Origin: Candidatus Nomurabacteria bacterium
Lineage (GTDB): Bacteria > Patescibacteriota > Minisyncoccia > Phycocordibacterales > CAIJYI01
Direction of reading: 5' to 3'
Assembly (NCBI GenBank): GCA_943356445.1
Contig: CALREZ010000003.1
Location: 6,125 to 70,124, forward strand
DNA: 64,000 bases
Part shown: positions 7,950 to 61,161 of the stretch, in pieces
Numbering within the stretch: position 1 is the stretch's first letter
Layout: each line of letters starts with the position of its first letter
Made by a program: the position numbers and the translations under genes
The notes under the pieces: model-generated
The model's input: only the letters and a program-made list of their open reading frames with translations
The model's database searches: none
What the model was told of the DNA's origin: nothing

Positions 7950-10628
7950 TTATGCGGTAACTTTTTCTTTCTGCCCCTTCCCTACCGGTTTGCGTTTTAT
8001 TTTATCAGCGGTAATGGTGAGTTCGCCATTCTTCATTCCGACGGACACGACTCCTCCGAAGAGCATGCCTTTGGAGATCATCATCGTGGCGACAGGATTC
8101 AAGATCTTGTTTTGAATAAGCCGCTTCAGTGGTCTCGCGCCGTACTGAGGGTTGTATCCTTCTTTAGCAAGATATTCAAGAGCCGATTCAGAAACATTGA
8201 GAATAATCTCTTTTTCTTTCAATCGTTTCTGAACGATGGCAACCTGAAGACCGGCAATTTCTCTGACGGCTTCTTGGGAAAGAATATCAAAGATAAGAAT
8301 TTCATCCAAACGATTCAAGAATTCCGGACGGAAATAATTTTTGAGAGCCGCGGTCACTTTTTCTTTCGCTTCAGTATAATCCGCCGCATCGGTCGTATTG
8401 GAAAATCCGATAGACTTCATCCGATCAATGAATTCGGCGCCGATATTGGAAGTGAGAATAATGACGGTATTTTTAAAGTTGACCGTTCTTCCTTTTGCGT
8501 CGGTAAGGCGTCCGTTATCCAGCACCTGCAAAAGAATGTTGAAGACTTCCGGATGAGCTTTTTCTATCTCGTCAAACAAGAGAACGGAATACGGTTTATG
8601 ACGGACGAGTTCGGTGATATTTCCGCCCTCTTCATGTCCGACATATCCGGGAGGAGAACCGATGATTTTTGAAACCGAGTGCTTCTCCATGTACTCGGAC
8701 ATATCTATGCGGATGAGAGACTTCTCGTCATTGAACAAAAATTCCGCCACTGCTTTGGAGAGCTCGGTCTTTCCCACTCCGGTGGGGCCCAAGAAAAGGA
8801 ACGAACCGATCGGATGGTTCGGATCGGCAATGCCGACGCGAGAGCGTTTGATGGCATCCGAAATTTTCTCAATCGCGCTGTTCTGTCCGACGACGCGGGC
8901 GCGGAGACGATCTTCAAGCGTGCCGAGTTTCGCCGCTTCTTCTTCCAGCATTTTTGAAACGGGAATTCCCGTCCACTTGGAAACAATATCGGCGATTTCC
9001 GCTTCGGTGATTTCTTCTTTAAGAATTCTCTGCGCGCTTTTGAGTTTTTTCAAACGAAGGCTTTTGGAAGCAAGTTCTTTTTCCAGCGTCGGAATTTTTC
9101 CGTAGCGGATCTCGGCAACGGTGGCAAGATCGGTGCGAGCTTCGGCGGTTTCCGCTTCAAGACGAAACGCATCAAGCTGTTTCTTTATCTCGCGCATGGA
9201 AGTGAGAATTTCTTTCTCGTTTTTCCATCTCGTCTCCACGTCATGCGTTCTTTCGCGAAGGTCGGCAATCTCTTTATCAATATCTTTCATGCGGGATTTC
9301 GCGTTGTGTCCTTCATCCGTTCCCGCTTCTTTTTTGAGCGCTTCTTTTTCAATTTCCAAACGCATAATCTTGCGATGCGCATCTTCAAGTACCGCGGGTT
9401 TGGTTTCCAGCGAAATTTTCAGCATGGAAGCGGCTTCATCAATGAGGTCAACCGCCTTGTCGGGCAAGAACCGATCGCTGATGTAGCGTCCGCTCAAATT
9501 GACGGCGGAAAGAATGGCGTCATCGGTGATGCGTACCCCGTGATAGAGTTCGTATTTTTCTTTGAGTCCGCGAAGAATGGCGACCGCGTCGGGAATGGAA
9601 GGTTCGTTCACTAAAACCGGTTGAAAGCGGCGAGTAAGCGCGGGGTCTTTTTCAATATGTTTTTGATATTCTTTGAGTGTCGTCGCTCCGATAGCGCGAA
9701 GTTCTCCGCGAGCAAGCGCGGGTTTGAGCATGTTGGAAGCGTCCAGAGAACCGTCCGCTCCGCCGGCTCCGACAATCATGTGTATCTCGTCAATAAAAAG
9801 AATGATCTTCCCTTCGGAATGTTCGATCTCTTTCATAATCGCCTTCAACCGCTCTTCAAATTCTCCGCGATATTTCGTACCAGCGACGAGCGAACCGATA
9901 TCAAGGGAAACGAGTTCTTTGTCTTTGAGGGATTCGGGAACATCGCCTTTCGCCATGCGGATCGCAAGACCTTCAACGACGGCGGTTTTCCCCACGCCGG
10001 CTTCTCCGATCAAGATCGGATTGTTTTTGGTTCGGCGGGAAAGTATCTGCATGATGCGGGCAATCTCAACGTCCCGACCGATAACCGGATCAAGTTTGTC
10101 TTCGCTCGCGAGTTTTGTCAGGCTTCTCGTATAGCGCGAAAGCACTTTGGATTTTTTTGGAGCGCTGACATCGGTAATGTTTCCGTTTTTGAATTCCTGC
10201 AGAATGCGGAGCACTTCGTCTTTGGTAATTTTGAAACGGGCGAGAAGCTCGCGGGATGTCTGGGAAATTTCTATGAGGGAGAGAAAAATGTGTTCGGTGG
10301 AAATAAAGCTGTCGTTCAGGGATTGGGAAACCTTGGCGGAATTTTCCAGTACGTTGGCAATCTCAGGGGTCAGGTACATCTGGTACGACGGAGACATGGT
10401 GGTACTGTTCTCGTTCGTTTCAAGAACCGCAAGAAGAGAATCTATGAGAAGATTCTGATCCGTTTCCATTCGGTCTAAAATGGCAATAACCGGGCCTTCT
10501 TCCTGGAGAACGAGCGCGGCGAGAAGATGCAAAGAATCAACGTGGTTTTGTCCGCGTTCAATAGCCAATTCGTGAGCTCGGCGAATCGCTTCTTTTGCTT
10601 TAGTGGTAAAGTCTTTAAGTGGCGGCAT
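7950..10628 (-). CDS. clpB: ATP-dependent chaperone ClpB (Clp_N domain, two AAA+ modules, long coiled-coil M-domain)
   Basis: Clp N-domain repeats; GEAGVGKTA in AAA-1; [19 protein letters not shown] in AAA-2; a long middle coiled coil; sensor-2 GARPLKR. Confidence 0.9.
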
Positions 10629-18491: not shown

Positions 18492-18565
18492 CGGGATGTA
18501 GTATACCGGTAGTACATACGATTCGGGTTCGTATAGACCGGGTTCGATTCCCGGCATCCCGACCA
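18492..18565 (+). tRNA. tRNA-Pro (anticodon CGG) with encoded CCA
   Basis: Acceptor CGGGATG/CATCCCG-A-CCA, anticodon stem-loop TACGA-TTCGGGT-TCGTA, T-arm CCGGGTTCGATTCCCGG. Confidence 0.75.
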
Positions 18566-18830
18566 TATTAAAACAACCTTCAATTACGAAGGTTGTTTTA
18601 ATATGGTCGGGATGAGCGAGTGACCTGCGTCACTCGCGTCCGGAAATCGAAGATGTTGAGCCTGTCGCAGTGAGCCGGAGAGGCGAAACGAGACGCGAAA
18701 CATGTACCGTCCATGTAATGGAAGATATCCCGGCATCCCGACAATTTGAATATCACTCGCGCGGCTCGCTCTGCGTCTGATGAAAACCTACGGTTTTCAT
18801 ACTTTCCCTTGCCTGACCTCAGGCACGGTT
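18566..18830. repeat. Highly structured region downstream of tRNA-Pro. It holds a 27-bp inverted repeat incorporating the tRNA 3-prime end, a second GC hairpin, a 15-nt direct copy of the tRNA-Pro 3-prime end at 18731-18745, and an 11-nt copy of the tRNA-Leu acceptor end at 18806-18816
   Basis: CCCGACCATATTAAAACAACCTTC-AATTAC-GAAGGTTGTTTTAATATGGTCGGG. GAGCGAGTGAC-CTGC-GTCACTCGCGTC. TCCCGGCATCCCGAC repeated. ACCTCAGGCAC repeated at 17885-17895 and 18806-18816. Confidence 0.5.
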
Positions 18831-21782: not shown

Positions 21783-21833
21783 AAAAAATCCGCGGTGAGC
21801 GGATTTTTTGTTGTGCCCAGGGGCAGAGTTGGT
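21783..21833. repeat. Direct copy of the tRNA-Phe 3-prime end (17 nt) plus its downstream terminator hairpin; a 51-nt duplicate of 21958-22008
   Basis: AAAAATCCGCGGTGAGCGGATTTTTTGTTGTGCCCAGGGGCAGAGTTG occurs twice. This copy serves as the terminator for the HD gene. Confidence 0.7.
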
Positions 21834-21989
21834 CACAGATAAATTTTTGTTCCGACAAAAATTTTCCGCGACCCCGTCTCGCCTGTCCCTGCGGGGGACA
21901 TGGCTCCGACTTTCAACTCCGCACGCAAGACAAGCAGTTGTCTTGCTCCCTGGGTACAAAAAAAATCCGCGGTGAGCGGATTTTTTGTT

Positions 21990-22063
21990 GTGCCCAGGGG
22001 CAGAGTTGAACTGCCGACCCTTGGTTCTTCAGACCAATGCTCTAACCAACTGAGCTACCTGGG
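21990..22063 (-). tRNA. tRNA-Phe (anticodon GAA)
   Basis: Reverse complement GCCCAGGTAGCTCAGTTGGTTAGAGC..CTGAAGA..GGTCGGCAGTTCAACTCTGCCCCTGGGCA. Confidence 0.85.
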
Positions 22064-22155
22064 CGTTTTCTTAAAATTTTGTTCTCTATGTCTTTCTAGC
22101 CAAAACAGTCACTGACTATTGTCTATTTATACTCGTTTTTGACCCTTTTGTAAAG

Positions 22156-23863: not shown

Positions 23864-24085
23864 GTTTTATAGTGTCCTCGGCAGGAATCGGAACTGCATC
23901 AGCTCGCCCCGTTACAAATTGTCCTCTTGGCAGGAATCGGACCTGCATCAGCTCGTTAGGAGTGAGCTATTCTATCCATTGAACTACAAGAGGAAAATTT
24001 GTAACGGGGCGAGTTACGAGTGAGCTATTCCCCGCCCCGACTGAACGATAATATCAGTCGTTCGGGCGGGTATCCATTGAACTAC
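23864..24085. repeat. Intergenic array of nested direct and inverted repeats: two 33-35-nt direct repeats, a 16-nt long-range inverted repeat, a split second repeat pair, and a GC hairpin
   Basis: GTCCTC(T)GGCAGGAATCGGA(A/C)CTGCATCAGCTCG occurs twice. CGCCCCGTTACAAATT pairs with AATTTGTAACGGGGCG. GAGTGAGCTATTC...CCATTGAACTAC occurs twice. Hairpin CCGCCCCGACTG...CAGTCGTTCGGGCGG. Confidence 0.55.
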
Positions 24086-26258: not shown

Positions 26259-26298
26259 CTTGTTTTTGATATTCTCTAATGATATGATACCTCATATG

Positions 26299-26409
26299 GC
26301 ATTCTTCAGCAAAAAAAATAAGAAAAAAGTGGAGTTCGTTTGGGCAATCGTCAGCGTTCTGGTCGCTGTCAGTATGGTACTCTTATACATGCCAAGCTTG
26401 TTCCAATAA
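26299..26409 (+). CDS. Possible 36-aa small membrane protein
   Basis: MAFFSKKNKKKVEFVWAIVSVLVAVSMVLLYMPSLFQ: a lysine-rich N-terminus plus one TM; followed by the terminator CAAAAAAGACCCCGATGGGGTCTTTTTT. Confidence 0.3.
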   Translation, partial: AFFSKKNKKKVEFVWAIVSVLVAVSMVLLYMPSLFQ

Positions 26410-26469
26410 ATAATTACCAAAAAAGACCCCGATGGGGTCTTTTTTAAATAAGCAACACTCCACAGGACA

Positions 26470-26597
26470 AGACGGGATTTTTCGTTGAGATTTGCTTTAT
26501 TTTCCGAGGAGGCCGGCGGGGCTGTAGAAGCCTACTGCCCCGCGGCCCCCGCAGAAAAATAAAGCGAAGATCACGAAAAAGACGGCTTGTCCTATTG
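26470..26597. repeat. Copy 1 of a dispersed roughly 125-nt palindromic element: conserved 34-nt and 33-nt termini that are imperfect inverted repeats of each other, flanking a variable GC-rich hairpin
   Basis: AGACGGGATTTTTCGTTGAGATTTGCTTTATTTT...GC hairpin...AAAAATAAAGCGAAGATCACGAAAAAGACGGCT. Second copy at 44455-44593. Confidence 0.7.
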
Positions 26598-28400
26598 TTT
26601 CATCATCTTTAAGAACACCTCATGGGGTATATTTACCTTCCCTCTCGTTTTCATTTTTTTCTTTCCTTTTTTCTGTTTTTCCAAAAGTTTCATTTTTCTC
26701 GTGATGTCGCCTCCGTACAGATATCCGGTTACGTCTTTTCTCATGGCGGAAAGCGAACGAGAGGAGATGATTCTTCCCAGCGCTTGCGATTGAATTTTTA
26801 CGACAAACAATTGTCTTGGCAAGATATTATGCAATTTCTCCACGGCGTCTTCGGCTTCTTCTTGGATTCGTTTTCTTGAGACGACACGGGTGAAAGCGAC
26901 CACAGGTTCTTCGGCGACCAAAATATCCAAACGGGCGACATCGGCCGGACGCATGCCGGTGATTTTGTAGGAGAGCGAAGCATATCCGGAACTCGCGCTT
27001 TTGAGTTTATCAAAAAATCCGCGCATGAGTTCGCGAAGCGGCATGTCCACTTCAATGGAATTGCGGTTCTCTCCAAAAACTTCCGACGCGCCTACCTCCC
27101 CTTCATGGTCATAAAGAAGCGTTATGATATTCCCGACATATTCCGGAGGCGTAATGATTTTTGCTTTCACCCACGGTTCGGCTACGGATTTGTATGAACC
27201 ATAATCAGGAAACAATGCGGGCGAGTAGATCATTTTTTTCTCGCCGTTCGGATATTCCACTTCGTACGTAATGGAAGGAGTCGCGATGATCATGTCCAAG
27301 TTGAATTCGCGATGTAAACGTTCGGTGATAATTTCCAAATGGAGCATTCCCAAAAATCCGCAGCGAAAACCGCGGCCGAGAGAACCGGAAGTTTCTTCTT
27401 CGTAAGAAAGCGATGCGTCGGTAAGGCGAAGTCGTCCAAGCGCCTGCTTCAAAAGATTAAAGTCATCCTGTCCTTCCGGATAAACAGACGCCCACACAAC
27501 CGGCGCAGGATTCATATATCCGGGAAGCGCGGGACTCGGATGTTTCGCGGAAGTAACCGTATCTCCAACGGAAGCAATACCCGGCTGTTTGATGCCAGTA
27601 ACGATGTAGCCAATCTCGCCTGCTTTAAGCGAATCTTGAGGAACTTGACCCGGGTGAAAAATACCGACTTCCAGAGCGATGAACTTTTCATTCGCCGCGC
27701 TGAACAAAAGCGTATCGTTCTTTTTCACTTCGCCGTTGAACATGCGGACATACACAATCACCCCGCGATGGGTAGAGTATTCAAAATCAAACACGAGTGC
27801 GCGAGGAGAATCTTCTCCGAAGGTTGGACCTTCGTTTTCAACTTTTGGGGGTTGTATTTTTTCAATGACGGCGCGCAGGACTTCATCTACGCCTTCTCCC
27901 GTTTTTCCGGAAACAGCAAGAACGTCATCTACTGAGCAATTGAGCAGCTGGGCGACTTCTTCTTTTACCTCTTTTGTTCGCGCGATCGGCGAGTCAATTT
28001 TGCTGACAACGGGGATAATCGTAAGGCCCGATTCGCGCGCCATTTCAAGCGTGGTAAGTGTTTGAGCTTGCACGCCCTGCGTCGCGTCTACAAGCAAAAT
28101 AGAGCCTTCTACGGCTTTCAGAGCGCGAGATACTTCATAGGAGAAGTCTATGTGTCCGGGAGTATCAATCAAGTTGAGCACATACGGCTCGCCCTGGTAT
28201 TCGTATTCCATTCTGACCGGCTGCATTTTGATGGTAATCCCGCGTTCTCGTTCAAGTTCCATGGAATCAAGCACCTGCGCCATCATTTTGCGCTTCTCTA
28301 TCGTGTGCGTAATCTCCAACATCCGGTCGGCCAGTGTGGATTTTCCGTGATCAATATGAGCAATAATGCTGAAATTTCTAATGTTTTTTCTCTCTAACAT
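26592..28400 (-). CDS. lepA: Elongation factor 4 (LepA)
   Basis: IRNFSIIAHIDHGKSTLADR, DTPGHIDF and the characteristic LepA C-terminal domain. Confidence 0.9.
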   Translation of the reverse strand: MLERKNIRNFSIIAHIDHGKSTLADRMLEITHTIEKRKMMAQVLDSMELERERGITIKMQPVRMEYEYQGEPYVLNLIDTPGHIDFSYEVSRALKAVEGSILLVDATQGVQAQTLTTLEMARESGLTIIPVVSKIDSPIARTKEVKEEVAQLLNCSVDDVLAVSGKTGEGVDEVLRAVIEKIQPPKVENEGPTFGEDSPRALVFDFEYSTHRGVIVYVRMFNGEVKKNDTLLFSAANEKFIALEVGIFHPGQVPQDSLKAGEIGYIVTGIKQPGIASVGDTVTSAKHPSPALPGYMNPAPVVWASVYPEGQDDFNLLKQALGRLRLTDASLSYEEETSGSLGRGFRCGFLGMLHLEIITERLHREFNLDMIIATPSITYEVEYPNGEKKMIYSPALFPDYGSYKSVAEPWVKAKIITPPEYVGNIITLLYDHEGEVGASEVFGENRNSIEVDMPLRELMRGFFDKLKSASSGYASLSYKITGMRPADVARLDILVAEEPVVAFTRVVSRKRIQEEAEDAVEKLHNILPRQLFVVKIQSQALGRIISSRSLSAMRKDVTGYLYGGDITRKMKLLEKQKKGKKKMKTRGKVNIPHEVFLKMMKQ

Positions 28401-44361: not shown

Positions 44362-44454
44362 GATATTCACTCCTGTAAGCAACTGAATTTCCGAAATGAA
44401 TTATATCACATTTTATTGAAAAAGCAAACTCCTCGCCAAGAAATGGTCTGGGAA

Positions 44455-44593
44455 TTAGAGACGGGATTTTTCGATGAGATTCGCTTTATTTTTTTTACCG
44501 GCGTGCCGAAGCGGGCTGTATATCAATACAGCCCCGAGGTCGCCGGTAAAAAATAAAGCGAAGAACACGAAAAAGACGGCTCGGCTCAATCTG
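44455..44593. repeat. Copy 2 of the dispersed roughly 125-nt palindromic element (see 26470-26597)
   Basis: AGACGGGATTTTTCGATGAGATTCGCTTTATTTT...hairpin GGGCTGTATATCAATACAGCCC...AAAATAAAGCGAAGAACACGAAAAAGACGGCT. Confidence 0.7.
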
Positions 44594-44597
44594 TACA

Positions 44598-45728
44598 CTA
44601 TCCTACTCCGAGGAATTCGTGGCGCAGATCATCGCGATGAGCGGCGCGGTTGTATCTTCTCATTCCCATCAAAATTCCCAAGCCGGTAAATTCGGTCAAC
44701 AAGTGCGAACCGCCATAGCTCATAAAAGGTATGGTAATTCCCGTTACCGGCAAAAGACCGATATTCATTCCGACATTGACCACGAAGTGACTGATAAAAT
44801 AGATGGCGAGACCCATGCCAAAAAGTATTTCAAAATTCGTTTCGCCGAGCAGCGCGTTATGCAAAATCCTCCAGATAAGAATGGCAAAAAACAGGAAGAG
44901 GAGCATTACTCCGACAAAACCCCATTCTTCGGAAAAAGCCGCGAAGATAAAGTCGGTCTGGTATTCGGGAAGAAAATTCAAACGGGACTGTGTTCCATAC
45001 CCGACGCCTTTGCCGAAAATTCCGCCCGAGCCGATGGCGATGGTGGACTGAAACGAATTGTATCCCGCTCCGCGGATATCCGCCAGCGGATGAATGAAGG
45101 TCATGATACGCTGTTTTTGATACGGTTCAAAAACAAAATTCCAGAGACCGCCGAAAGAAATAACACCGAGGGTAAAAACCAAAATGATGTGTTTTTTTGA
45201 AATGCCGGACACGAAGACCATTCCGAGCCAGATAAAAAGAAAGATAATGGCGGAACCAAAGTCCGGCTGAGCGGCAACCAAAACAAAAGGAATGAAAGCG
45301 TAAATTCCCGATACGATAATATGGCGGATATTCGCAATCTCAATATGACGGCGGGAAAAATATTTTGTGAGAACCAGAATGATAACCAGCTTCATCACAT
45401 CGGCCGGCTGAAAAGCGGCAAAGCCGACATTGAACCAGCTCTGGGCTCCCTTATAGACGCTTCCCACTGCGGCAAGTACCAAAAGCACGAAACATCCGCC
45501 TAAAAACAAAGTAACGATAACCCAAGTTCGGCGGAGAAATCGGAAGTCAATAAAGCTCAAACCAAAAAAAATGGCGAAGGAAATAGCAATCCAAAGAAGC
45601 TGCCTCATGGCAAAATTCCCTTTTCCGCCGAACGATCCCATGGTAATAACCCCCGCAAAGAGTATGGGGAAAGTGGAGAAAAAAAGTATCCAATCAATGT
45701 TGAAGGTTCGTTTCAGGTGAGTGATCAT
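44598..45728 (-). CDS. ftsW: SEDS-family peptidoglycan glycosyltransferase (FtsW/RodA)
   Basis: 10-TM SEDS pattern; PEYQTDFIFA and GGSHLL motifs. Confidence 0.85.
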   Translation of the reverse strand: MITHLKRTFNIDWILFFSTFPILFAGVITMGSFGGKGNFAMRQLLWIAISFAIFFGLSFIDFRFLRRTWVIVTLFLGGCFVLLVLAAVGSVYKGAQSWFNVGFAAFQPADVMKLVIILVLTKYFSRRHIEIANIRHIIVSGIYAFIPFVLVAAQPDFGSAIIFLFIWLGMVFVSGISKKHIILVFTLGVISFGGLWNFVFEPYQKQRIMTFIHPLADIRGAGYNSFQSTIAIGSGGIFGKGVGYGTQSRLNFLPEYQTDFIFAAFSEEWGFVGVMLLFLFFAILIWRILHNALLGETNFEILFGMGLAIYFISHFVVNVGMNIGLLPVTGITIPFMSYGGSHLLTEFTGLGILMGMRRYNRAAHRDDLRHEFLGVG

Positions 45729-47386: not shown

Positions 47387-47495
47387 TTCTGGCGGCTACC
47401 TACTCTTCCCCCGAAGGAGTACCATCGGTACTACGGCGCTTAACTGCTGAGTTCGAAATGAGATCAGGTGTGACCACCGCGTCAAGCCACCAAAA
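47387..47495 (-). rRNA. rrf: 5S ribosomal RNA
   Basis: Reverse complement TTTTGGTGGCTTGACGCGGTGGTCACACCTGATCTCATTTCGAACTCAGCAGTTAAGCGCCGTAGTACCGATGGTACTCC...GGGAAGAGTAGGTAGCCGCCAGAA, with helix I termini pairing. Confidence 0.85.
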
Positions 47496-47749
47496 CAAAA
47501 AACTCAAAGAGTTTTTCGGAGAAAAAAGTTAAAAGCAGAAAGTTGAAAGTGACGAAATCGTCGGACTTTTTACTTTTACCTTTTTTCTTTTTATTTATAT
47601 TATTTACAGAATCGTTTCGCAAGCATTTTAATCAAAAGACGTAAGTAGAAAGTTAAAAATAAAAAGATAAAAGTAATGCCGTCGCCGGACTTTTTACTTT
47701 TAACTTTCTACTTTTTTCTTCATGTGTGATTTTCAACTTTCCTAATAGG

Positions 47750-51145
<3,396 letters not shown>

Positions 51146-57153: not shown

Positions 57154-57603
57154 ATAGGTATATGTTATATTAAATTAAAAACACAGGCAAACGATTTTCA
57201 TTTGTCTGTGTTGGCGTTGAAGCGCGTTGTTATCCGTTACCGCCAAAAAAACGCGAGATGTTTGCGAGAACGCCGTTGTCGTCACTCCATCTTTTTTCAA
57301 GAGCCTCGCGATCTTTTATGAGAGGTTTCCCGTTCGTTTCAGGGTCTCCGCGAGTGAAATTTGTTTCGGAATCTTTTTCAGCATGGTCACGAGCCATGTG
57401 TTTTGCCGCAGATGTCCTGCTTGTCGTTTCGCCAGTTTCTTCAGCATCTTCTTCTATGTCTCTTCTGCTCACTTGTCTTCTCCTTAAAAAAGAACAATCA
57501 TTGTCATAAATTGACAACTTTTCAAATCTAGCACACAACCAAAATTGTGTCAAAAAACAGAACAAAGGCGAACATTGCAAAAAGGAACCAACAAAAGAAA
57601 CAA

Positions 57604-57672
57604 AATCGGGTCAATTCCCCCTATTTGACCCGATTGGGTTTAGAAAAACCGGCTATTTTTAGCCGGTTTTTT
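57604..57672. repeat. Left 70-bp direct repeat bounding the R-M cassette; consists of two hairpins (AATCGGGTCAA...TTGACCCGATT and AACCGGCTA-TTTT-TAGCCGGTT followed by a T-run)
   Basis: About 88 percent identical to 61092-61161 by eye, with the same two-hairpin architecture. Confidence 0.7.
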
Positions 57673-61000: not shown

Positions 61001-61091
61001 AAAGTAATTTTATTACCACACTAATACCCCAAGTATCTCTCTACTCTACCACGGAGGAGTTTCAAAAACAAAGGCTGTCCCCAAGAGAACG

Positions 61092-61161
61092 AATCGGGTC
61101 ATTTGCTCCTATTTGACCCGATTGTGGGTTGGAAAAACCGGCTGTTTTTGGCCGGTTTTTA
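61092..61161. repeat. Right 70-bp direct repeat bounding the R-M cassette
   Basis: AATCGGGTCATTTGCTCCTATTTGACCCGATTGTGGGTTGGAAAAACCGGCTGTTTTTGGCCGGTTTTT against the left copy at 57604-57672. Confidence 0.7.

Follow-up and report, generated by a model that had tools for sequence, protein, structure and literature searches.

Among described bacterial sequences, the closest to the element treated here are the stem-loop repeats: repetitive extragenic palindromes (REP, with BIME and REPIN), enterobacterial repetitive intergenic consensus (ERIC) sequences and others, which were used for comparison (PMC3733652, PMC2267715, PMC3116915). The element is found twice in a 64,000-nt stretch of DNA (the window) from a Candidatus Nomurabacteria bacterium (contig CALREZ010000003.1), behind lepA and behind an FtsW/RodA-family gene. 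It represents a previously undescribed, lineage-specific (Paceibacterota/Parcubacteria, in the Candidate Phyla Radiation, CPR) family of structured intergenic sequences of the REP/REPIN, ERIC, stem-loop-repeat class.

REPs lie close behind the upstream open reading frame (ORF) and at a variable distance from the next gene (PMC3733652). The element is placed in the same way: it follows the 3′ end of the preceding ORF by less than about 20-25 nt, has a variable distance to the downstream one, and lies between unidirectional or convergent genes. REPs arranged as head-to-head dimers form hairpins of ~100 nt and show no target-site duplication, and the same is true of the element, which has CGTC at the foot on one strand (PMC3733652, PMC3116915). 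In format the two differ: REP units are 20-40 nt long, with stems of 8-9 bp, and are species-specific and present in tens to hundreds of copies, whereas the element is one unit of 118-135 nt, has few copies, and is conserved across organisms whose neighbouring proteins are only 72-80% identical. As to the REP tags, GTAG is absent, and although the minus strand has CGTC at each foot, the arms do not form stem-loops of 8-9 bp by themselves. Unlike RAYT-associated REPs, it has no RAYT gene in the gene tables around its copies (the 64-kb window and the relatives' loci). An earlier sequence-only reading of this stretch had named REP-like elements among the things that this one resembles, and to this extent it was right: there are many copies in related genomes, placed as described for REPs (PMC3733652).

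ERIC sequences (also called IRU; imperfect palindromes of ~127 bp) agree with the element in size, in forming a single long imperfect hairpin, in low to moderate copy number, in their location in transcribed intergenic regions and in conservation between species; the effects of ERIC on flanking mRNA depend on orientation. There is no sequence similarity (blastn of copy 1 at word size 11 gave no match in 5,426 complete E. coli genomes), and ERIC sequences occur in both orientations, whereas the element occurs in one only, right behind stop codons, and in a host phylum of the CPR. Correia/NEMIS, RUP, BOX, and other bacterial MITEs (on which see below) are palindromes of 100-150 nt that are co-transcribed with their neighbours, their RNA hairpins being cut by RNase III or altering mRNA stability. 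These have clear terminal inverted repeats, TA or other target duplications, many near-identical copies and insertion polymorphism, none of which was found for the element.

Integron attC sites (such as the Vibrio cholerae repeats of 123-126 bp) resemble the element in length, imperfect palindromy, position directly after an ORF, fixed orientation, conserved ends, and variable centre; in both, the strand opposite the coding strand folds better and bears conserved unpaired bases. The element, however, ends in AGACGGG...GACGGCT rather than in RYYYAAC/GTTRRRY core sites, no cassette array or integrase was seen, and its upstream genes are syntenic housekeeping genes. The RNase III signals of phage T7 are intercistronic hairpins with a conserved internal loop, just after stop codons, that leave a protective 3′ hairpin on the upstream message; they have no sequence relation to the element, and its strand asymmetry points the other way.

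Both window copies are present where the sequence-only reading had placed them, each as an imperfect palindrome of ~118-123 nt that folds into one long hairpin. In the following list the plus strand is the orientation of that reading, and is the better-folding strand:

26465-26592, + strand: full hairpin of copy 1, scoring 133.1 bits with the covariance model
26470-26587: conserved block of copy 1
26470-26503, + strand: left arm of copy 1, AGACGGGATTTTTCGTTGAGATTTGCTTTATTTT; its GA dinucleotides at 26476-26477 and 26489-26490 make tandem G.A/A.G mismatches against the right arm
26518-26541, + strand: apical hairpin of copy 1, GGGGCTGTAG-AAGC-CTACTGCCCC, with a conserved T.T mismatch
26555-26587, + strand: right arm of copy 1, AAAAATAAAGCGAAGATCACGAAAAAGACGGCT, with the partner GA dinucleotides at 26569-26570 and 26581-26582
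44454-44586 (about 44458-44584 as the span with the closing base pairs), + strand: full hairpin of copy 2, scoring 125 bits with the covariance model
44459-44581, + strand: conserved block of copy 2

The left- and right-arm patterns each match only these two copies in the 64 kb (0.01 and 0.00 matches expected from shuffles), and the left arms are 94% identical, as against 73% for the remaining 97 nt. The covariance model, with filters off, also finds only these two in the window (133 and 125 bits); the next match scores 15.6 bits. The termini are indeed imperfect inverted repeats, and in addition AGACGG is present at both ends as a direct repeat. Predicted RNA folding energies are -72.3 (copy 1) and -65.0 kcal/mol (copy 2) for the plus strand and -69.9 and -57.4 kcal/mol for the minus strand, with z scores against shuffles between -8 and -9.7 for both copies; DNA parameters give -43 and -41 kcal/mol. 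The core had been described as variable, GC-rich, and strongly hairpin-forming. The hairpins are real, but the variation is not free: the apical hairpin, GGG(G)CTGTA...TAC(T/A)GCCC(C), is common to the whole family, and otherwise about three subtypes recur. The closing helix of copy 1 is GGACAAG/CTTGTCC, while copy 2 has a core of subtype B (GCGTGCCGAAGCGGGC...GCCCCGAGGTCGC), in common with four copies elsewhere (L016, L019, L022, and L035; loci outside the window are designated by L numbers).

These two copies are members of a family and not a chance pair. Chance similarity of terminators, which the sequence-only reading had allowed for, does not hold, as ~20 further copies or remnants were found in Paceibacterota/Parcubacteria metagenome-assembled genomes (MAGs) and metagenome contigs. 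Complete copies are present at L005, L007, L013-L017, L019-L021, L023, L029-L032, and L035; those at L006, L022, L026, and L033 are truncated or internally deleted. Three kinds of search contributed. An exact 19-base left-arm pattern, run on one genome per species, gave complete copies at L005 and L007 and a left arm only at L006, plus chance matches, and a right-arm pattern run over the JGI metagenomes gave ten further real loci. At each locus found with a single-arm pattern, the arm not searched for is conserved too. Finally, loci fetched through lepA and RodA homologues, with the element not used in the query, yielded six more copies or remnants of this family (family 1) at the same two sites. 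The organism is an uncultured one: contigs with an identical lepA are found in ENA metagenome assemblies, and its closest named relatives are 'Candidatus Parcubacteria/Paceibacterota' MAGs.

The family matches nothing already catalogued in the collections searched. Rfam 15, run on the window, copy 1, the L013 copy and family 2 (below) at gathering and permissive thresholds, gave no family match to these hairpins, none reaching the gathering threshold; the permissive run gave only generic long-hairpin (miRNA-precursor) matches, the best for copy 1 at 32.7 bits against a threshold of 77.5. Phage and plasmid collections gave no match to the element, and in viral contigs the left-arm pattern had two chance matches, neither of which fits the covariance model. 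No description of the element was found in published work on repeats or non-coding RNA hairpins of CPR, Patescibacteria, or Parcubacteria.

The family consensus, in the plus orientation used above, is cg-AGACGGGAUUUUUCG-AUGAGA-UUCGCUUUAUUUU-[middle helix]-GGGGCUGUA-N4-6-UACUGCCCC-[middle helix′]-AAAAUAAAGCGAA-GAUCG-CGAAAAAGACGGCU-cg, with lengths of about 118-135 nt. Conserved throughout are both arms, the apical hairpin with its U.U mismatch and two purine-rich 2x2 loops (the tandem G.A/A.G mismatches, as read on this strand), along with one G.G, one bulged A, and one U.G. The middle helix is of type A, GC-rich, in copy 1, L007, and L020; of type B in copy 2 and the four loci named with it; and of type C, AT-rich, in L005, L013, L015, L017, L021, and L023. 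In the lepA-site copies L029, L031, and L032 it is AT-rich and similar to type C. The foot is closed in most copies by 3-7 extra base pairs of non-conserved sequence, and the two arms differ from each other at fixed positions in every copy. In L015, L017, and L030 an extra hairpin is inserted exactly in the AUGAGA loop, giving a three-way junction.

Several identities for this structure were tried and rejected. For the AUGAGA/GAUCG loop, the K-turn, box C/D, hammerhead, and loop-E motifs were compared by hand, and each is ruled out by the strand geometry that it demands. Inspection by eye shows no domain IV motif of signal recognition particle (SRP) RNA, there is no large central bubble as in 6S RNA, and the element is multi-copy; both RNAs are also absent from the permissive Rfam matches. 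As to coding potential, the ATG in GATGAGATT opens short frames (e.g., MRFALF...), but by eye their ends differ (in L013 the frame has 7 codons before its stop), and the length differences between copies are not multiples of three.

That the structure is maintained is shown by covariation. The test used 55 proposed pairs in seven gap-free copies (alignment A5), with 500 shuffles and with controls in which the partner was slid by 1-3 columns. The pairs are 97.7% canonical, as against 44-50% paired in the slid controls; 20 of the 55 are changed on both sides and none on one side only, and no shuffle of the 500 reached the observed covariation measures. The cleanest evidence comes from comparing orthologous copies. 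The L005 and L017 copies, which lie beside permeases of 71.8% protein identity, have about eight differences apart from the inserted hairpin, and six of these make up three compensatory pairs. The lepA-site copies show G-C/A-U and U-A/C-G swaps, and in their UUUUUCG/CGAAAAA helix, invariant apart from this, C-G has been exchanged for G-C. The intergenic DNA around orthologous copies is not alignable. In these alignments, compensatory substitution exceeds what relatedness gives, as a structured element would require. Taken with the orthologue comparisons, the covariation points to constraint on the element, or at the least to active upkeep of its palindromic form.

The orthologous sites also give a partial history. 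For the lepA site, the window and relatives whose lepA is 94% (L030, chimeric), 92%, 91%, and 87% identical carry the element; another relative at 94% (L026) has only a 23-nt hairpin remnant resembling the element foot (ATCGCGAGG-TTTTA-CCTCGCGAT), and the element is absent from another 87% relative and from an 82% relative. For the RodA site, the window copy has a counterpart in an 80% relative (L035) whose core is likewise of type B; a 98% relative (L033) keeps just two fused termini (GAGCCGAGCCG-CCACC-AAAAATCCCGGCTCT), and an 87% relative lacks the element. More distant relatives have unrelated sequence at the site in question. Among the relatives lacking the element no clean empty site was found, only remnants of internal deletion. 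Target-site duplications, which the sequence-only reading had proposed looking for, are absent from the copies: the flanks are complementary (ca/tg, ag/ct, cg/cg, gg/ct) rather than direct repeats, and so extend the hairpin. The gene tables of the window and of the relatives' loci show no transposase, recombinase, or integrase next to any copy. Together these comparisons indicate vertical inheritance with repeated loss by internal deletion, and not insertion polymorphism. As a separate observation, the lepA-DivIC intergenic region contains clusters of short GTCCATAAAGTC-type repeats in relatives without the element or with it in addition (L027 11832-11880; L029 3505-3590).

Placement is strict. 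Wherever the neighbour could be evaluated, an opposite-strand gene has its stop codon 0-25 nt from the right end of the copy (in the plus orientation). Nine unrelated upstream genes are represented, encoding LepA, RodA, MreB, GrpE, ATP synthase beta, an Asp-Al_Ex permease, a response regulator, an Ig/dockerin protein, and a 15-aa micro-ORF; a single orientation at all nine has a chance probability of ~2^-8. The next gene is anywhere from 0 to 400 nt away, and several copies, such as the one behind the ATP synthase beta gene, lie within what appear to be operons. Read in the direction of the upstream gene, a canonical and probably bidirectional terminator follows the element at copy 1 and L029, and at copy 2 and L005 the next gene's promoter follows directly, with no terminator between. 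Since the element precedes either the terminator or the next promoter, it would belong to the transcript of the upstream gene. That both window copies lie just past minus-strand stops, as first reported, is correct, and their surroundings are as follows:

26592-28400, - strand: lepA (EF4), 602 aa; its stop, TAG at 26592-26594, overlaps the copy 1 hairpin foot by 1 nt
26417-26447, no strand assigned: intrinsic terminator of canonical form (A-tract, GACCCC/GGGGTC hairpin, T-tract), 22 nt past copy 1
26296-26409, + strand: small membrane ORF of 37 aa (MAFFSKKNKKKVEF...; full peptide MAFFSKKNKKKVEFVWAIVSVLVAVSMVLLYMPSLFQ), convergent with lepA
44598-45728, - strand: FtsW/RodA/SpoVE-family gene, 376 aa; its stop, TAG at 44598-44600, is 17 nt from copy 2
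44400-44439, - strand: promoter-like region of the gene after copy 2 (ATG 44362), TTGGCG-18-TAAAAT with an extended -10, TGTGATATAAT

The terminator at 26417-26447 ends the lepA transcript and probably serves the convergent small ORF as well. This ORF is conserved in L026, L029, L030, and L031 (in L031 it is called as a 37-aa gene) and probably encodes a real small membrane protein; as it is convergent with lepA, copy 1 sits between convergent genes. No terminator was found between copy 2 and the promoter-like region at 44400-44439.

Some further features of these sites were noted. Read-through of the stop codon into the element was considered and rejected at lepA, where in-frame stops occur within a few codons. 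The stop is TAG in six of eight independent genes preceding the element (window 26592 and 44598; L005, L007, L015, and L016), compared with ~26% among the long ORFs of these contigs; since orthologues switch between TAG and TAA, this enrichment was given no weight. The 15-aa micro-ORF (MKLREGDSIASLVCL, preceded by AGGAG) is on the opposite strand in the element's right flank at L021 (~160-240) and L023 (~160-245); its peptide is the same in both despite six synonymous or stop-codon changes, and it ends 4-8 nt before the element. The sole copy without an adjacent gene (L019, 8849-8969) lies between two inverted perfect DnaA boxes. Three perfect boxes (TTATCCACA) occur there within 530 nt (8829-9355), and the L019 locus has nine with at most one mismatch where 2.3 are expected; this region may be an oriC.

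For the role of the element, REP, ERIC, and Correia sequences and the RNase III sites of phage T7 serve as analogues. The tentative first choice is a co-transcribed hairpin, in a 3′ untranslated region (3′ UTR) or between cistrons, acting on mRNA stability or processing. Going by the anatomy of the loci, the upstream mRNA would include the element in its 3′ UTR or as an intercistronic segment, where it would form one long rod-like hairpin. This might block 3′-5′ exonucleases at the 3′ end or between cistrons, or be processed or bound by a double-strand-specific nuclease or some other conserved protein, or both; it would thereby govern how stable the upstream message is compared with the downstream one. 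Such an element would be useful but dispensable, inherited vertically at each site, and not an active transposon.

Several observations weigh against this choice, and most of them concern the strand. In 12 of the first 13 copies scored, the mRNA strand is the poorer folder, the opposite one being 1-15 kcal/mol more stable; the same is true of all five copies scored later, and with DNA parameters. On this antisense strand the conserved mismatches are tandem G.A/A.G, G.G, and U.G, while the mRNA would have pyrimidine mismatches. G.U outnumbers A.C by 30 to 5 there, or by ~11 to 4 in a hand count without invariant and doubtful positions, and one position of the B core reads G-C, G.U, or A-U in different copies. 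In the AT-rich helix, changes are strictly Watson-Crick on both sides, including A-U/U-A flips, with no G.U intermediates. This would also fit maintenance of the palindrome at the DNA level, e.g., by template-switch correction of a quasi-palindrome, with the mismatched loops held by selection. A second family of hairpins, described below, has the same antisense geometry in three of four cases, with an asymmetry of 30-35 kcal/mol. Finally, since close relatives have lost the element, it is not essential. The better folding of the antisense strand is left unexplained by the 3′-UTR hairpin, and keeps alive the reading considered next.

This rival, unlikely but the best of the alternatives, is that the element is a folded site in single-stranded DNA, with the antisense strand as the functional one, recognised by an HUH (Y1) transposase or a tyrosine recombinase as are REPs with RAYT, IS200/IS605 ends, and attC bottom strands; the copies would then be non-autonomous or immobile relics. 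The consistent strand asymmetry and the conserved mismatches and bulges on the antisense strand would follow from it, as would the strictly Watson-Crick compensation without G.U intermediates. GACG is present at both hairpin feet in direct orientation on the plus strand (CGTC on the other), and the missing target-site duplication is what HUH-type insertion would give. Dispersal behind unrelated genes also suits such a site, as do the truncated and internally deleted copies (L006, L022, L026, L033). A length of ~120 nt, a position downstream of an ORF and a folding strand opposite the coding strand are properties of the Vibrio attC repeats (VCR) too. However, the gene tables show no transposase or recombinase beside any copy, there is neither a GTAG tag nor an attC core site (RYYYAAC/GTTRRRY), and the units are unlike the published CGTC-REP format (stem of 8-9 bp, loop of 4-5 nt; PMC3733652). 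The carrier genes are syntenic housekeeping genes rather than cassettes. Judging by gene and rRNA orientation and GC skew, the folding strand would be on the leading-strand template, the less exposed of the two, and copies stay at orthologous sites over long divergence.

In a broader form, the elements would be strand-specific folded sites antisense to genes, belonging either to a CPR system of folded-DNA recognition (like attC or REP-RAYT, but on housekeeping genes) or, as RNA, to a ribonucleoprotein; this too seems doubtful. At least three scaffold families (family 1, the ~180-nt family 2, and family 3) share the rod-like long-hairpin architecture. Family 2 is found at L021 3775-3939, L026 18970-19150, L034 2140-2320, and L035 14160-14340, all on the minus strand, with a partial copy at L028 4458-4509. 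Its core (...AAGAUUUGAUUUUUUCGAUUGAGUAAA...GAUUUGCGAUUGAGAAAAAAUCAAAGAUU...) is closed by a basal helix of 16-27 bp, its strands differ in stability (-101.5 vs. -66.3 and -93.7 vs. -59.8 kcal/mol), and three of four copies are antisense to the flanking genes; it has no Rfam match and no copy in the window. Family 3 (L015 5795-5880, +; L032 21070-21216, +; L027 14680-14810, -) has the internal loop module of the element, GG-AUGAGA-UUCGCG ... CGCGAA-G(A/G)UCG-CC, with a different outer helix (CUUACGCACUUGG/CCAAGUGCGUAAG) and different apical parts, and its L015 copy abuts the stop codon of a convergent gene. Families 1 and 3 may have a common protein partner for the AUGAGA/GAUCG loop.

A third possibility, an improbable one, is an independent small RNA gene on the better-folding strand, convergent with its neighbour and antisense to the neighbour's 3′ end. 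The purine-rich conserved loops, the excess of G.U and the better fold are all on that strand; the covariation is of a kind typical of structured RNA, and the extra hairpin of L015, L017, and L030, placed exactly at the inner loop, makes a three-way junction. Such a gene would need a promoter, and a search inside and just upstream of the element gave no -10-like box at a fixed distance (only in L016 does TCGAAA, a -35-like sequence in the arm, line up with one). At window copy 1, L006, L020, L029, and L032 (five loci), moreover, the terminator of the convergent gene ends 3-55 nt before the element, which leaves no room for one; with both findings, an independent antisense RNA is unlikely. Nor is there a U-tract or terminator at the 3′ end, so the RNA would run into the neighbour's coding region. 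The non-coding RNA module suggested in the sequence-only reading may still apply, but as a separate gene it would lack a fixed-distance promoter, and in those five loci would have a terminator abutting its 5′ end.

Fourth, the element might be a MITE (a miniature transposable element with inverted repeats), as was also suggested at first: a selfish DDE-type element with terminal inverted repeats and target-site duplication but no function, its conservation being due to recent spread or gene conversion. Its size, palindromic shape, and dispersal fit, as do the core subtypes shared between genomes and the degenerate copies. This is nevertheless very improbable, and in the strict sense the name is not supported. 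There is no target-site duplication, the flanks being complementary (ca...tg, ag...ct), and the gene tables show no transposase; the arms differ at fixed positions in every copy, and the two copies of this one genome, far from near-identical, are strongly different in the core. Orthologous copies are far more conserved than their surroundings and have compensatory differences, deletion remnants rather than clean empty sites are seen where the element is lacking, and the phage, plasmid, and viral collections searched contain no match.

Least credible of all is a transcription terminator module, intrinsic or bidirectional: the element does sit where a terminator is expected, with no other hairpin between stop and next promoter at copy 2 and L005, but whichever way it is read its GC hairpin is preceded by the U-tract and followed by the A-tract, no terminator is called by the scan at either window element while canonical A-tract/hairpin/T-tract terminators are common in the same window (one directly after copy 1), and several copies are inside apparent operons.

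The window contains other structured features. The 23S rRNA match (47741-51145, - strand) is 3405 nt long, against a model of 2925 nt, which implies ~480 nt of inserted sequence; an inverted repeat lies inside it (49215-49239/49328-49352). As the Rfam scan at gathering threshold gave no small-subunit rRNA match in the 64 kb, the 16S gene appears to be unlinked. The 5S gene (47387-47494, - strand) is within a 27-nt inverted repeat (47371-47397/47485-47511), and between 5S and 23S are two tandem A/T-rich long hairpins, 78% alike (47520-47592 and 47644-47716). One tRNA (23922-23993) is within a 27-nt, 96% complementary inverted repeat (23903-24013) resembling an rRNA processing stem; at another (18492-18562), a perfect 27-bp hairpin (18555-18614) begins inside the tRNA 3′ end. 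A 78-nt two-hairpin module is present twice, 72% alike (57595-57672 and 61083-61160), and a 49-nt exact duplicate (21783-21831 and 21960-22008) comprises a terminator and the adjoining end of a tRNA gene (21991-22064).

CPR/Patescibacteria have tiny, compact genomes, and almost nothing is known of their non-coding elements. An element kept while the neighbouring proteins are only 72-80% identical would provide a handle on mRNA 3′ ends or operon stoichiometry in these organisms, and the covariance model is ready for use in annotating the family in metagenomes. Should the antisense-strand signal be true, it could point instead to an unrecognised DNA- or RNA-binding system. If the element is only a decaying REP-like repeat, it still documents a repeat class in a phylum where no published description of one was found.

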